Source of the DNA: a virus
Direction: 5' to 3' (one strand)
IMG/VR virus record: IMGVR_UViG_3300024319_000003
Location: 103,697-167,696 of that record
DNA: 64,000 bases
Shown: positions 52,047 through 60,035 of the stretch, piece by piece
Position numbering within the stretch: position 1 is the first letter of the stretch
How the letters are laid out: every line of letters begins with the position of its first letter
Notes under the pieces: generated by a model
What the model was told of the DNA's origin: nothing
Database searches by the model: none
What the model saw: only the letters and a program-made list of their open reading frames with translations
Program-made: the position numbers and the translations under genes

Positions 52047-52074
52047 GCGTTAGCCTATACGCGAAATACCTGGC
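52047..52074 (+). promoter_or_regulatory. Candidate pseudoknotted RNA leader upstream of queC
   Basis: GCGT/ACGC stem; loop GCC can pair with downstream GGC; a GC-rich island in an AT-rich gap. Confidence 0.35.
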
Positions 52075-52094: not shown

Positions 52095-52883
52095 ATGGCA
52101 CATTGTGTAGTAAGTTTAAGTGGTGGAATGGATAGTAGCACCCTATTGTTAAGAGCTATCGAAAAGTATGATACTGTAACAGGTATATCATTTGACTACG
52201 GTCAAAAACACAGAGTTGAACTTGAAAGAGCTCAATCGTTAATTGATTATCTAGCAGATAAAGGTCACAAAGTAAATTATCGTCAAATTAAATTAGATGG
52301 ATTAGTAGACTTACTAGATTCAGCTTTAACTGAAGGAGGTAAAGATGTACCAGAAGGTCATTACGAGCAAGAGAATATGAAAGAAACTGTTGTTCCTAAT
52401 AGAAACAAAATGTTCGCTTCTATAACTCAAGCAGTAGCTTTATCAGTAGCAAATAAAACAGGAGAACCTTGTGATATCGCTTTAGGTATTCATGCTGGTG
52501 ATCATGCAGTTTATCCTGATTGTAGACAAGAATTTAGAGATGCAGATGATAAGGCATTTAGAATGGGAAATTGGGATGCAGATAGAGTAGGTTATTTCAC
52601 ACCTTATTTAGATACTGATAAATTTGGTATCTTACAAGATGGATTAAATTTATGTGAGGTTCTAGATTTAGATTTTGATGAAGTTTATAGAAGAACAAAC
52701 ACATCATATAAACCTTACCCGTCAGGAAATAGTGATTATAAGTCAGCATCTTCAGTAGAACGTATTGAAGCATTTATTGCATTAGGAAGACCTGATCCAG
52801 TACAGTATGAAGATGAAACAGGAGAAGTTGGTTATGAAGTTGCAAGAAGACACGTTGAAAACGTTTTATCATCATATTTATAA
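52095..52883 (+). CDS. queC: 7-cyano-7-deazaguanine (preQ0) synthase
   Basis: SGGMDS, FDYGQKH, VPNRN and YPDCR motifs. Confidence 0.95.
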   Translation: MAHCVVSLSGGMDSSTLLLRAIEKYDTVTGISFDYGQKHRVELERAQSLIDYLADKGHKVNYRQIKLDGLVDLLDSALTEGGKDVPEGHYEQENMKETVVPNRNKMFASITQAVALSVANKTGEPCDIALGIHAGDHAVYPDCRQEFRDADDKAFRMGNWDADRVGYFTPYLDTDKFGILQDGLNLCEVLDLDFDEVYRRTNTSYKPYPSGNSDYKSASSVERIEAFIALGRPDPVQYEDETGEVGYEVARRHVENVLSSYL

Positions 52884-53058: not shown

Positions 53059-53132
<74 letters not shown>

Positions 53133-53150
53133 CAACAAATATGAATAAAA

Positions 53151-53180
53151 GTTGTTTTATAAGTTTATTATTCATATATT
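53151..53180 (+). promoter_or_regulatory. GTTG-N20-TATATT promoter driving the queD/queE unit
   Basis: Recurrent motif, directly upstream of aptamer 1. Confidence 0.72.
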
Positions 53181-53194
53181 AGTTATAAGACAAT

Positions 53195-53222
53195 AGTGTC
53201 GTAGCACCACTTTAAAAACACG
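53195..53222 (+). ncRNA. preQ1-I-like riboswitch aptamer 1
   Basis: AGUG-UCGUAGCAC-CACU-UUAAAAACACG: P1 stem, UCGYAG..C loop and A-rich tail, ending 3 nt before the ATG. Confidence 0.7.
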
Positions 53223-53225
53223 AAT

Positions 53226-53429
53226 ATGAATAAAGTAGTAAAAGAAAACTTCCAAGGAATTAAGATCAACGATCATAAAATTCCAGATCCAAAATTACAT
53301 CAATTAGTAAGTTTTATAAAATCCGGTATAAGAATACTGGGGTATATTTGCATACCCTTTAGTCTGGTATGGGCTACAATCTTTTTAGTTTTAAGTGAGG
53401 TAGTAGGAATAATAGAAGAATTAGTTTAA
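53226..53429 (+). CDS. Small membrane protein
   Basis: 67 aa with hydrophobic C-terminal half (KSGIRILG...LVLSEVVGIIEELV). Confidence 0.75.
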   Translation: MNKVVKENFQGIKINDHKIPDPKLHQLVSFIKSGIRILGYICIPFSLVWATIFLVLSEVVGIIEELV

Positions 53430-53438
53430 ATAAAAATT

Positions 53439-53903
53439 ATGGGAAAATTTCAATCAAGTAAAGTTTTTGACGGATTTAGTACAGTGTTTCGTCAACATTC
53501 AGCAGAAAACACACACTGTAGATTCCTACACGGGTACGGTATATCATTTAAAGTATATTTTGAAGGAGATTTAGATGAAAGAAACTGGGTCTGGGATTTT
53601 GGAGGTATGAAAAGAGCTAAAACCTTAATAGACGGCAAATCACCGAAAGAGTGGATGGATTTTATGTTTGACCACACCTTTATAGTAGCAGCAGATGATC
53701 CATTCTTAGAATCTTTTAAGAGGATGGCAGAAGCAGGAGTTGCACAGGTAAGAGTAATACCAGCTACAGGAGCAGAGAAATTTGCAGAGTATATCTTTAA
53801 CAAACTAAATGAATTTGTTAGTAAAGAAACAGAAGGTAGAGTTAAAGTTATTAAAGTAAAATTTATGGAACACGGTAAAAACGCAGCGTATTATGTTGGA
53901 TAA
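53439..53903 (+). CDS. queD: 6-carboxy-5,6,7,8-tetrahydropterin synthase
   Basis: C.FLHGY, WVWDFG, FDH and T.AE motifs of the PTPS/QueD fold. Confidence 0.92.
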   Translation: MGKFQSSKVFDGFSTVFRQHSAENTHCRFLHGYGISFKVYFEGDLDERNWVWDFGGMKRAKTLIDGKSPKEWMDFMFDHTFIVAADDPFLESFKRMAEAGVAQVRVIPATGAEKFAEYIFNKLNEFVSKETEGRVKVIKVKFMEHGKNAAYYVG

Positions 53904-54681
53904 GAAGTTAAAAAGAATAGAGGATTACGATAAGAACCTACCTATTGTAGAGATATATACTGCAGTACAATCTGAAGGTTCAAGAGCAGGGTACCCAACA
54001 GTAGTAATTAGAACTACAGGGTGTACACACAGATGTTACTTCGGTGAAGGAGGATGGTGTGATAGTTGGTATACAAGTATTCATCCGGAAAAAGGGCATT
54101 TTAATTTCAAAGATATTATTAAAGCATATGAAGATAATCCTCATATAAAAGAAATGATGTTGACTGGTGGTTCACCAACAATGCATCCAGCCTTAGTAAA
54201 CGAACTAACACACTTTGCACATGAAAACAACATATTCATTACTATTGAAACTGAGGGATCTCATTTTCTTCCTACCGATTATCCTATTAATTTGCTTAGC
54301 ATTAGTCCTAAGTTTAGTAATAGTGTCCCCGTTGTTGGTGTTACAACTCCTCAGGGATCCATTACCGACGAAAGAATGGTAAAACGTCATAATAAGTTTA
54401 GACTTAATTATGAAGCAATAAGACAATCAATTGATTACCATTCTGATTACCATATTAAACCTGTATGGGACGGTAAAGATGAAGGAGCATTATCAGAGAT
54501 TATGGAATGTATCGATATCTTAGAAGTACCTCAACATAAAGTTTGGTTTATGCCTGCTGGAGATTCAAGAGAAGCACTGTTTAAATCTTACCCGGTATTA
54601 TTTGATTGGGTTAGAGATAATGGTTATAGAATGACTTGGAGACCGCACATTATTGCTTTCGAAGATCAAAGAGAGGTATAA
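53893..54681 (+). CDS. queE: 7-carboxy-7-deazaguanine synthase (radical SAM)
   Basis: E.YTAVQSEG..G.P, GCTHRCYFGEGGWCDS (extended Cys motif), TGGSP, ETEG, ISPK. Confidence 0.93.
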   Translation: MLDKKLKRIEDYDKNLPIVEIYTAVQSEGSRAGYPTVVIRTTGCTHRCYFGEGGWCDSWYTSIHPEKGHFNFKDIIKAYEDNPHIKEMMLTGGSPTMHPALVNELTHFAHENNIFITIETEGSHFLPTDYPINLLSISPKFSNSVPVVGVTTPQGSITDERMVKRHNKFRLNYEAIRQSIDYHSDYHIKPVWDGKDEGALSEIMECIDILEVPQHKVWFMPAGDSREALFKSYPVLFDWVRDNGYRMTWRPHIIAFEDQREV

Positions 54682-55376: not shown

Positions 55377-55393
55377 ATTAAAAATCGTATATT
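55364..55393 (+). promoter_or_regulatory. TTTG-N20-TATATT promoter driving the folE unit
   Basis: Recurrent motif, directly upstream of aptamer 2. Confidence 0.72.
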
Positions 55394-55404
55394 GTATTAA
55401 TAAA

Positions 55405-55431
55405 TGAGTCGTAGAACCTCAATAAAACAAA
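55405..55431 (+). ncRNA. preQ1-I-like riboswitch aptamer 2
   Basis: UGAG-UCGUAGAAC-CUCA-AUAAAACAAA; near-identical loop to aptamer 1 with a different, compensated stem; 9 nt before the folE ATG. Confidence 0.7.
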
Positions 55432-55440
55432 TTAAATATT

Positions 55441-56154
55441 ATGCCTAAAAAATTTATAGACGGAACAGAATTAGTAAAAGCAGGATATGCAAATGGTATA
55501 TCAAGTCAATTAGCTGCAAAACAAGAATTAGAAGGACCTGAAGCAAGGTTAACTGAACATGAGAAAAAAGTAATTATAGAAAGAGCAGCAAATGCTTACG
55601 CAGACTTTTTAACTGCATTAGGATGTGATTATAAAGAAGATCCTAACTCATCAGATACTCCATTTAGAGTAGCTAAAGCATATGTTAATGACTTATGGGC
55701 CGGAAGGTATAACCCTCTAGATAGGATAACAGCATTCCCATCAGACGGATACGACGGAATCGTACAGGAGAGTAATATACCTGTAACCTCTATGTGTTCA
55801 CATCACCACCAAGCTATTAGCGGTACAGTTAGTATTGCTTATATAGCCTCTGAAGACGGTAAAGTAGTAGGGTTATCTAAGTTAAATAGAATAGTAGAAC
55901 AATTCGGTAGAAGAGGAGCTATCCAAGAACAATTAACTGTAGCTATTCATAATGCAGTAGATAAGATCTGTGAAGGTAATTTAGGAGTAGCAGTTCAAAT
56001 AAACGCAACTCATGCATGTGTATCATGTAGAGGAGTAAAACATAGAGGAGCTTCAATGCAAACAGCAAAATTAACAGGAGCATTTTTAAATGAAGATTCT
56101 GCAAAAGCAGAGTTTTATAAGAATATAGAATTAGCATCAATTTGTAAACATTAA
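55441..56154 (+). CDS. folE: GTP cyclohydrolase I
   Basis: TP.RVAK, SMCSHH, GLSKLNR, QEQLT and HACVSCRG motifs. Confidence 0.96.
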   Translation: MPKKFIDGTELVKAGYANGISSQLAAKQELEGPEARLTEHEKKVIIERAANAYADFLTALGCDYKEDPNSSDTPFRVAKAYVNDLWAGRYNPLDRITAFPSDGYDGIVQESNIPVTSMCSHHHQAISGTVSIAYIASEDGKVVGLSKLNRIVEQFGRRGAIQEQLTVAIHNAVDKICEGNLGVAVQINATHACVSCRGVKHRGASMQTAKLTGAFLNEDSAKAEFYKNIELASICKH

Positions 56155-58240: not shown

Positions 58241-58762
58241 ATGATAAAAAGAATAGCATTAGTAGGAGCAAGTAGTACAGGTAAGACTACTGTATATGAA
58301 TTATTAAAAAATAAATTACCTAAATATGAATTCGTAAACGAATCTACTAGAACTGTAGGTAGTTACGGATTTCCTATCAACGAGGAAGGTACTTGTGCTA
58401 CTCAGTTAGCTATTAGTAGTTTTCATTTAGAAGCTTTACTCCAACCTTATAACTTAGTACTAGATAGATGTTATATGGATGTTGTAGTTTATACTAAATT
58501 TATGAAAGGGGTAACTTCACATACGTACAGTTATATAGAAGATACTTGGAATAGGGTTAAAAATGAATATACTCATTATATTTACTTCCCTATTGAATTC
58601 GATTCAGTAGATGATGGAGTAAGGAGTATAAGTGAAGAGTGGAGAAAAGAAGTAGATGATGAATTTAAAGCAGTACTAGACGGAGTACGTCAACCTTACT
58701 TAACTATAACTGGTTCTCCTATGCAAAGAGTAGAACAAATAATGAAATTTATAAATGTATAA
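58241..58762 (+). CDS. P-loop nucleotide kinase-like protein (NadR/AAA_28 or dNMP kinase-like)
   Basis: GASSTGKTT, VLDR..D and DDGVR motifs. Confidence 0.8.
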   Translation: MIKRIALVGASSTGKTTVYELLKNKLPKYEFVNESTRTVGSYGFPINEEGTCATQLAISSFHLEALLQPYNLVLDRCYMDVVVYTKFMKGVTSHTYSYIEDTWNRVKNEYTHYIYFPIEFDSVDDGVRSISEEWRKEVDDEFKAVLDGVRQPYLTITGSPMQRVEQIMKFINV

Positions 58763-59120
58763 ATACGGAGCTAAATTAATTAGAGTAGTCGACGGAGATA
58801 CCGCAGATGTAATGATCGATTTGGGTTTTGATACTTGGGTTAAAGCAAGGTTAAGATTTAAAGGGGTTGACACTTGGGAAAAGAGAACAAGAGATTTACA
58901 AGAAAAAGCTAAAGGCTTAGAAGCCTCAGCATTTACAAAAAAGTATCTAGAGATGAATGATGGTAATTTTATCATTCAGTCGTACGGGAAAGGTAAGTAC
59001 GGTAGGATATTAGCTGAAATTTTCATAAAAGGAGAAGAAACCTCTTTAAATAAACTACTAATCGAAAACGGCCACGCTTACATATACGAGGGTGGTAAAA
59101 AACAAACATTTAAAAATTAA
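58755..59120 (+). CDS. Thermonuclease (SNase-like)
   Basis: RVVDGDT, R..GVDT.E, KYGRILA, N..L...G.A. Confidence 0.88.
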   Translation: MYKYGAKLIRVVDGDTADVMIDLGFDTWVKARLRFKGVDTWEKRTRDLQEKAKGLEASAFTKKYLEMNDGNFIIQSYGKGKYGRILAEIFIKGEETSLNKLLIENGHAYIYEGGKKQTFKN

Positions 59121-59123
59121 ATT

Positions 59124-60035
59124 ATGGCAGACGTAAAAAATTATCAAGAAGTAGTAGAAATAGCATCAAAGCATTTAGGTAAAGTTGGTGGTGATGGGTA
59201 TAAAGACACCTACTCACCTGAACTACTGGTCAAAGTACCAAGGTATTTGAATAGAGAAGGATACGGGTTAACCGATAAAAGCTTCGTAGGAGTAGATACT
59301 TGGAACTGTTACGAAGTCTCAGCAATTACAACTAAAGGTCAACCTGTAGCAGGTATGCTAAAAATTGTATGCCCTTCAGACTCAGAATATCACGTAGAAT
59401 CTAAATCTATTAAACTGTATTTAAATTCTTTTAATATGACCAGACTAGGAGATTGTTCAGCAGATTGTATGGCTGTGATAGAAGCTAGGGTAAAAGAAGA
59501 TTTAGACAAATTACTGGAAACAAATACAACAGTAAGTTTTTATAGTGATTTAGAGGACGGAAAAGCACTATCTTTTGAAGGTTATACAGATTTAGGTGAG
59601 ATAGTAGATTTAGATCAAATAGACTTTACAGCTTTTCAATCTGATGCTTCTCAGCTACTTATAGAAGATACTTCAGATACTCCAAAAGAAATAAAATTAA
59701 GATCTAACTTATTAAGATCTAACTGTAGAGTAACGAATCAACCAGATTGGGGTGATGTATTTATTAGAATGAATGGTAAAAATTTACCAGCAGTAGATTC
59801 GTTAGCTAAGTATATTGTATCTCATAGAACGGTAAGTCATTTTCATGAAGAAATATGTGAAATGGTATTTAAGCATTTAATGGATGCGTATAAACCAGAC
59901 GATTTAATGGTATCATGTCTATACACTAGACGAGGTGGTTTAGATATTAACCCTATTAGAGCTACGCATTCAAGATTTATACCAGACTTTTTTACACACA
60001 CAGATTATAGAATTGAAAAAACCTTAAGACAGTAA
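59124..60035 (+). CDS. queF: preQ0 reductase, bimodular type
   Basis: D.W..YE.S, VESKSIKLYLNSFN, SNCRVTNQPDWG, FHE and YTRRGGLDINP motifs. Confidence 0.95.
   Translation: MADVKNYQEVVEIASKHLGKVGGDGYKDTYSPELLVKVPRYLNREGYGLTDKSFVGVDTWNCYEVSAITTKGQPVAGMLKIVCPSDSEYHVESKSIKLYLNSFNMTRLGDCSADCMAVIEARVKEDLDKLLETNTTVSFYSDLEDGKALSFEGYTDLGEIVDLDQIDFTAFQSDASQLLIEDTSDTPKEIKLRSNLLRSNCRVTNQPDWGDVFIRMNGKNLPAVDSLAKYIVSHRTVSHFHEEICEMVFKHLMDAYKPDDLMVSCLYTRRGGLDINPIRATHSRFIPDFFTHTDYRIEKTLRQ

Follow-up and report, generated by a model that had tools for sequence, protein, structure and literature searches.

A miniaturised preQ1-I-like element, so far phage-only and predicted to bind ligand, in the leaders of 7-deazaguanine genes of a virus related to Flavobacterium phages

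Do the short leaders inside a phage 7-deazaguanine gene cluster hold a metabolite-sensing RNA, and if they do, what would it sense? The window, the whole 64,000-nucleotide stretch of DNA analysed here, is the terminal 64 kb of a 167,696-bp IMG/VR virus record. A spacer of 92 nt separates its tRNA-Ala gene from a 67-aa ORF (orf67), and an original prediction, made from the letters of this DNA, had placed a preQ1-I-like riboswitch in this spacer, as the leader of queD and queE. We followed up that prediction by comparing viral loci, models of the RNA and published preQ1-I structures. The features discussed are collected in Table 1.

Table 1. Features of the window, in window coordinates.
Feature	Position	Strand	Evidence or detail
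queC	52095-52883		ATG at 52095
tRNA-Ala	53059-53133		
TATATT box, putative -10-like element of class 1 leader	53175-53180	+	conserved in relatives
Class 1 aptamer candidate, 28 nt	53195-53222	+	AGUG-UCGUAGCAC-CACU-UUAAAAA-CACG; sequence
Class 1 P1	53195-53198 with 53208-53211		4 bp; AGTG and CACT in the DNA
Class 1 loop	53199-53207		TCGTAGCAC in the DNA
Class 1 U5	53199		
Class 1 P2, 5' strand	53201-53204		G7 U8 A9 G10
Class 1 L2	53205-53207		C13 = C53207
Class 1 tail	53212-53222		TTAAAAACACG in the DNA, UUAAAAACACG as RNA; then AAU, then AUG (53226)
Class 1 L3	53212-53218		
Class 1 P2, 3' strand	53219-53222		C25 A26 C27 G28
orf67, small hydrophobic 67-aa protein, first gene under class 1 aptamer candidate	53226-53429	+	ORF list
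queD, 6-carboxytetrahydropterin synthase, PTPS family	53439-53903	+	Pfam PF01242, E 1.3e-14
queE, radical SAM 7-carboxy-7-deazaguanine synthase	53893-54681	+	Pfam PF04055
Phosphoribosyltransferase-like gene	between queE and folE		
TATATT box upstream of class 2 aptamer candidate	55388-55393	+	
Class 2 aptamer candidate, 27 nt	55405-55431	+	UGAG-UCGUAGAAC-CUCA-AUAAAA-CAAA; sequence, model R2
Class 2 P1	55405-55408 with 55418-55421		specificity C = C55417
folE, GTP cyclohydrolase I, first gene under class 2 aptamer candidate	55441-56154	+	Pfam PF01227, E 3e-42
queF, preQ0 reductase	59124-60035	+	Pfam QueF_N E 3.5e-28, QueF E 2.9e-17

The nearest cultured relatives of this virus are the Flavobacterium phages vB_FspM_immuto, with 75% DNA identity from queD to folE; the annotated immuto queE likewise shares 75% DNA identity with the queE of the window. 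Synteny with the annotated immuto cluster places a MazG-like gene, then a DpdA-like gene, then a PurN-like/DpdN-like formyltransferase gene 3' of folE, the DpdA-like gene being syntenic with the annotated DpdA of immuto. Two further genes sit inside the modification cluster, between the formyltransferase gene and queF (58241-59120); they encode a P-loop kinase-like protein (AAA_28, with a weak thymidylate-kinase match) and a staphylococcal-nuclease-like protein. The presence of queF shows that the phage can make preQ1 itself. In immuto, DpdA and a DpdN formyltransferase put formyl-preQ1 in place of every G of the DNA (bioRxiv 10.1101/2023.04.13.536721).

The original prediction took queD for the first gene after the element; the first gene is in fact orf67, with queD and queE next. 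The orf67 product has no Pfam or PHROG family match, its protein clusters are exclusively viral, and its homologues occur in 59 viral loci, adjoining queD and queE. Since it stays beside queD in deazaguanine clusters whether or not they have the aptamer, orf67 is probably part of the 7-deazaguanine pathway.

The layout of the leader element was described correctly: an AGUG/CACU stem-loop and its tail end 3 nt before the ATG of orf67, and the letters match the claim exactly. The 59 viral loci were fetched via the 67-aa protein, independently of the RNA, and the same 28 nt stand directly before the ATG in 13 of them. Across these 13 protein-ascertained loci the 28-nt motif is 94.5% identical pairwise, against 41-50% for the 40-nt flanks on either side. 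Model R1 scored 60.7 bits (E 3e-13) at this site, its sole strong match in the phage genome. The element is more than a chance arrangement of letters.

A second form of the element, which we call class 2, lies 9 nt before the folE ATG. Its stem differs from that of class 1 yet is complementary (UGAG/CUCA), and model R2 scored 44.2 bits (E 1.3e-6) at the site. A two-class family model gave exactly two matches in the 168-kb phage genome, at 54.2 and 44.2 bits (E 1e-8 and 1e-6). Pattern scans of IMG/VR, together with the loci from the protein search, yielded at least 94 instances in distinct contexts: at least 61 of class 1, in viral contigs, and at least 33 of class 2, with the stems UGAG/CUCA, GGAG/CUCC or UGUG/CACA. 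Among the matches listed, orf67, queD, queE or folE starts within 45 nt in 85 of 94 distinct instances, and folE follows class 2 directly in 28 of 33. The remaining instances are cut loci or precede a 197-aa ORF that is followed by orf67-queD-queE. The leader is tied to three different first genes, all linked to the preQ1 pathway, and in this window and one other contig two copies precede different pathway genes. The 197-aa ORF (L197:9090-9683 on the minus strand, also in L182, L200 and L269) comes first after a class 1 variant with G8-C28; its product has a signal-peptide-like N-terminus and no clear family.

The association between stem and gene context is also seen with a loose pattern that specifies loop and tail. 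Among its listed matches, those with a UCNNAG loop in a que-gene context have all four stem pairs in 85 of 87 cases, and those outside a que context in about 2%. We rejected 17 que-context matches with fewer pairs as motif instances; they lie within protein-coding genes, almost always towards the 3' end of queD. Matches of the class 2 query in Enterococcus phages also fall inside coding sequence and were set aside as chance AT-rich hits.

We then considered how widely the element is distributed. In one genome from each of 185,579 prokaryote species the class 1 pattern had two matches: a chance match, which was discarded, and a 5.9-kb phage-like MAG contig with both aptamers and que genes. Among GenBank phages, class 2 occurs only in the immuto phages (before folE in the cultured Flavobacterium phage immuto, L005, MW353176.1) and class 1 was not found. 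Neither RF00522 nor the phage model had a match in 121-151 bacterial genomes of the class of one MAG, a search in which few candidates were scored. The motif is absent from the locus read in Cellulophaga phage phiST, despite its queD-queE-folE genes. A queE at least 85% identical to that of the window occurs in 80 viral loci; within the fetched stretch, 19 of these have class 1, 16 of them together with class 2, and the other 61 have a run-on DpdA-queC-orf67-o86-queD-queE-folE order without either aptamer. Control by the aptamer must be dispensable, because about three quarters of the close queE relatives do without both. We note separately an unrelated, highly conserved stretch with conserved flanks, TCTCAGCACCAGTTTTAAAAAC, in viral contigs of 4-14 kb from IMG/VR (L068, L070, L071 and about 40 others).

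We compared 72 distinct sequences of both classes, among the matches listed, for evidence of base pairing. In P1, 99.3% of cells are paired, a level reached by none of 500 shuffles. The outer pair is A-U in 46 sequences, U-A in 14 and G-C in 10, and the third pair is U-A in 52 and A-U in 20; pairs 2 and 4 are invariant G-C, the top pair next to the ligand site being G4-C14. P1 is 4 bp long in every instance, and the flanking bases are unable to lengthen it. Varying stem arms around a fixed, asymmetric loop point to pairing in RNA and against a protein operator on DNA.

The second helix was drawn differently in the original prediction, which paired CGU of the loop with ACG of the tail. The alignment contradicts this register: only 64% of cells are paired, and changes always disrupt a pair, without any compensation. 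A register like that of the Thermoanaerobacter tengcongensis (Tte) aptamer, with G10-C25 plus N8-N28, fits, with 95% of cells paired and four pair types. G10-C25 is invariant. Among the class 1 instances listed, pair 8-28 is U-A in 26, U-G in 13, C-G in 11 and G-C in 3, with a mismatch in 8 of 61; C8 always occurs with G28 and G8 always with C28. In class 2 the same pair is mismatched in 15 of the 33 instances listed (14 U-U, one U-C). Few of these covariation events are independent, because most variants form clades. L3 is 6-8 nt long, and its last four to seven bases are A in every instance listed. Thermodynamic folding gave no signal (z -0.07 to -0.9), the method being uninformative for a pseudoknot so small. 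The minimum-free-energy fold of class 1 favours a competing hairpin, GUGU/GCAC, which on this model could be the structure of the apo state; the hairpin is not kept in class 2.

How closely does this fold resemble a known preQ1 aptamer? The original prediction gave the sequence of the Tte aptamer correctly; it reads CUGGG-UC-GCAG-UAAC-CCCAG-UUAACAAAA-CAAG (PMC10639078). Its pocket consists of G5, U6, G11, C15, C16 and A29, the ligand stacks on G5-C16 and G11, and P2 is formed by G11-C30 and C9-G33 around the non-canonical pairs G8-A31 and A10-A32 (PMC8612554). The phage RNA aligns to it position by position as AGUG-UC-GUAG-CAC-CACU-UUAAAAA-CACG, so that Tte U6, C15, A29, G11-C30 and G5-C16 correspond to phage U5, C13, A24, G10-C25 and G4-C14. 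The six pocket counterparts are invariant in the 72 distinct sequences of both classes, an invariance that the search patterns partly impose and that is seen also in the 13 protein-ascertained loci. A26 is nearly invariant, and the class 2 tail, CAAA or CAAG, is Tte-like.

Membership in the Rfam family PreQ1 (RF00522), proposed earlier as a check, was not borne out. The family model, which detected the B. subtilis riboswitch as a positive control, gave nothing at its gathering score (39 bits) at the class 1 site. At E<=10 it had no match there on 161 nt or on 47 nt, none at these sites in a genome-wide search, and none to class 2 or the immuto copy on 47-66 nt. The element is therefore better described as a preQ1-I variant than as belonging to that Rfam family. 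Of the Rfam models, DUF805 RNA (RF03081) came closest at the class 1 site, with 16.2 bits against a cut-off of 51.1 (E 0.88). The likeness consists of a first hairpin GUG..CAC followed by UUAAAAAC; the phage element is without the second hairpin of that family, and real members (L287, L288) have the loop AGACCAG.. The sub-threshold, partial match and the different loop of true members rule out DUF805 membership.

Upstream of the element, a promoter had been expected directly before the stem. A simple sigma-70 scan calls none there; a conserved TATATT box is present instead. In all 13 protein-ascertained loci the box lies 12-21 nt upstream of the stem, despite differing surroundings, and in most class 2 instances listed it lies 8-12 nt upstream, so that the distance over both classes is 8-21 nt in nearly all instances listed. 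The box resembles a promoter element of the phage. The region is contained in metatranscriptome assemblies of four seawater studies; such contigs cannot show RNA starts, levels or that RNA is made. Every exact contig starts within the loop, at 53205, and we rejected this position as a transcription start. It is an assembly-graph break, because the 32 nt at 53203-53234 are common to a co-occurring L009-type strain and the first strain-unique 31-mer begins there. The co-occurring sister strain carries a UCACAG loop variant, and the shared stretch indicates that these samples contain several strains of the phage group side by side.

The central claim of the original prediction was that a phage 7-deazaguanine operon has a preQ1-I-like aptamer in its leader. 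This claim is supported by the conservation of the motif, by covariation, by the strict association with genes and by the six pocket counterparts. We put at roughly 70% the probability that the two elements (53195-53222 and 55405-55431) are miniaturised, so far phage-only preQ1-I-like translational OFF switches, with ligand binding predicted from the match to the known pocket. Free preQ1 or preQ0 would be the natural signal, since the phage makes preQ1 (folE, queD, queE, queC, queF) and the G of immuto DNA is entirely formyl-preQ1. Free preQ1 (or preQ0) in surplus over its use by the DNA transglycosylase would bind between G4-C14 and G10, pairing with C13 and contacting U5 and A24. The A-rich tail would then dock into the P1 groove while C25..N28 pair with the loop, and the ligand-bound fold would bury the unpaired, A-rich bases immediately before the AUG.

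The position of the element relative to the start codon bears on the direction of control. L3 and C25..N28 reach to within 2-4 nt of the AUG in class 1 and to within 5-9 nt in class 2, and the aptamer leaders are without a Shine-Dalgarno sequence. Translation initiation in Bacteroidota relies on an open A-rich leader and not on a Shine-Dalgarno sequence. With an A-rich leader that becomes buried, no Shine-Dalgarno sequence and initiation of the Bacteroidota type, ligand should repress translation of the early enzymes: synthesis from orf67-queD-queE (class 1) and from folE and later genes (class 2) would drop. The outcome would be a rapid feedback on the pathway that replaces all guanines in progeny DNA, and the phage would probably use the element to throttle its 7-deazaguanine pathway when the modified base accumulates.

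We weighed three other explanations. The one that survives best keeps the fold and changes the ligand (preQ0, 7-carboxy-7-deazaguanine, free formyl-preQ1 or guanine) or the direction of control to ON; we regard it as unlikely, and several observations lend it weight. The lengths of P1, L2 and L3 are unlike those of all typed preQ1-I RNAs, and RF00522 finds no match. The two classes differ at L2 position 11 (C/U in class 1, A in class 2) and at tail position 27 (C and A, respectively), which could tune specificity, and the known preQ1-I types vary widely in how they discriminate preQ1 from preQ0 (17-fold for Tte, about 135-fold for E. coli; PMC10622847). A change of ligand has to be set against the retention of all six nucleotides with which Tte reads preQ1, including the stacking G-C and G and the pairing C. 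The competing apo hairpin of class 1 also speaks for this explanation. Against an ON switch, the start codon lies 2-9 nt away, too near for a separate anti-sequestor, and with the start codon so near, folding can hardly expose the initiation region.

An operator for an RNA-binding protein of phage or host (a RegA-type or autogenous repressor), or a processing site, would involve no metabolite sensing, and we give it only a slim chance. Extreme sequence conservation with few independent covariation events, a place adjoining the start codon and the lack of this control in many related phages are what such a site could show. It would leave unexplained the point-by-point agreement with preQ1-I in pocket and P2 register, the exclusive link to the preQ1 pathway at three first genes, and a stem that changes freely around an invariant loop. 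A DNA-level element, serving as an inverted-repeat operator or belonging to a phage promoter, is hardly credible: the P1 arms do form an inverted repeat in DNA with a conserved TATATT box nearby, but the half-sites vary (AGTG, GGTG, TGAG, GGAG, TGTG) while an asymmetric 9-nt spacer and a one-sided A-rich tail are invariant, loop-tail covariation would be meaningless in DNA, and the distance to the box varies over 8-21 nt while that to the ATG is tight.

A different H-type pseudoknot candidate precedes queC at 52047-52074 (GCGU-UA-GCC-UAU-ACGC-GAAAUACCU-GGC). Among 58 distinct viral variants its stem covaries in three of four pairs (GC/AU, CG/GC, GC/AU), with 98.5% of cells paired, which none of 500 shuffles matched. 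Its GCC/GGC pairing never changes except in L182, where GCUAC/GUAGC takes its place; AAUACCUGGCA hardly varies in this leader, and no Rfam family matched the pseudoknot at E<=10. In a sister phage lineage without either preQ1-like aptamer, the queC pseudoknot is the sole leader RNA of the three and precedes the queC-orf67-o86-queD-queE-folE portion of the gene run. Class 1, class 2 (before folE-dpdA-dpdN) and the queC pseudoknot might together form a three-part RNA regulon on guanine replacement, with a specificity that may be shifted toward the phage-made base; we offer this extension tentatively and think it rather doubtful. If the regulon reading were true, the 27-28 nt aptamers would be the smallest natural metabolite sensors.

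We know of no regulator of the pathways that hypermodify phage DNA. We found no paper describing a phage preQ1-like riboswitch, nor, among the papers searched, one joining 'riboswitch' with 'DpdA'. If the RNA binds preQ1, these phages would use metabolite feedback to keep GTP consumption in step with the need to replace every guanine. The preQ1-I fold would then be shrinkable to a 4-bp stem and 27-28 nt overall, less than the present record for natural aptamers; and since current covariance models would be missing such variants, counts of riboswitches in phages may be too low. A direct test of the idea is possible, as class 2 is available in a cultured pair with known DNA chemistry, vB_FspM_immuto and Flavobacterium sp. 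LMO8. The paper on the immuto modification is silent on regulation (bioRxiv 10.1101/2023.04.13.536721).

A survey of phages in 2017 reported only c-di-GMP-I and glutamine riboswitches and judged phages to be rare users of such RNAs (PMC5473149). The c-di-GMP-I riboswitches of C. difficile prophages and the glutamine riboswitches of cyanophages resemble the element proposed here in being metabolite-sensing RNAs in phage genomes, but neither controls a DNA-modification pathway. Among preQ1-I RNAs, the type III form in the E. coli yhhQ leader also has a very compact loop, with an L2 of 3 nt and one site for the ligand (PMC10622847). An engineered 30-mer of it, in which the outermost P1 pair does not close in the crystal and P1 is effectively 4 bp, binds preQ1 at about 52 nM (PMC10622847). 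That binding, together with the 3-nt L2, makes the small size of the phage RNA physically plausible. Type III differs in its pyrimidine-rich loop, single-nucleotide L1 and long variable linker before the poly-A, whereas the phage RNA has a Tte-like loop (UCGUAG) and a short linker. Its own P2 uses GGA of the Shine-Dalgarno sequence, it is nearly restricted to gamma-proteobacteria, and it controls a transporter gene.

The fuller comparison is with preQ1-I type II (Tte, Bacillus subtilis queC; RF00522). The phage RNA is smaller throughout, with a P1 of 4 bp versus 5, an L2 of 3 nt versus 4-6, an L3 of 6-8 nt versus 8-9 and an aptamer of 27-28 nt versus 33-34. It would work without Shine-Dalgarno involvement in the mechanism proposed, and among the matches listed it occurs in viral contigs only. 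Much else is alike. The H-type pseudoknot order P1-L1-P2-L2-P1'-L3-P2' of type II is the one proposed for the phage RNA, and both have a loop that starts UC-G(Y)AG, a C directly 5' of the P1 3' strand, and an A-rich L3 that ends in A and is followed by a C-A-N-G/A tail. Both are also associated with genes of the preQ1 pathway, which type II RNAs control, in the Tte form at the level of translation (PMC10639078, PMC8612554).
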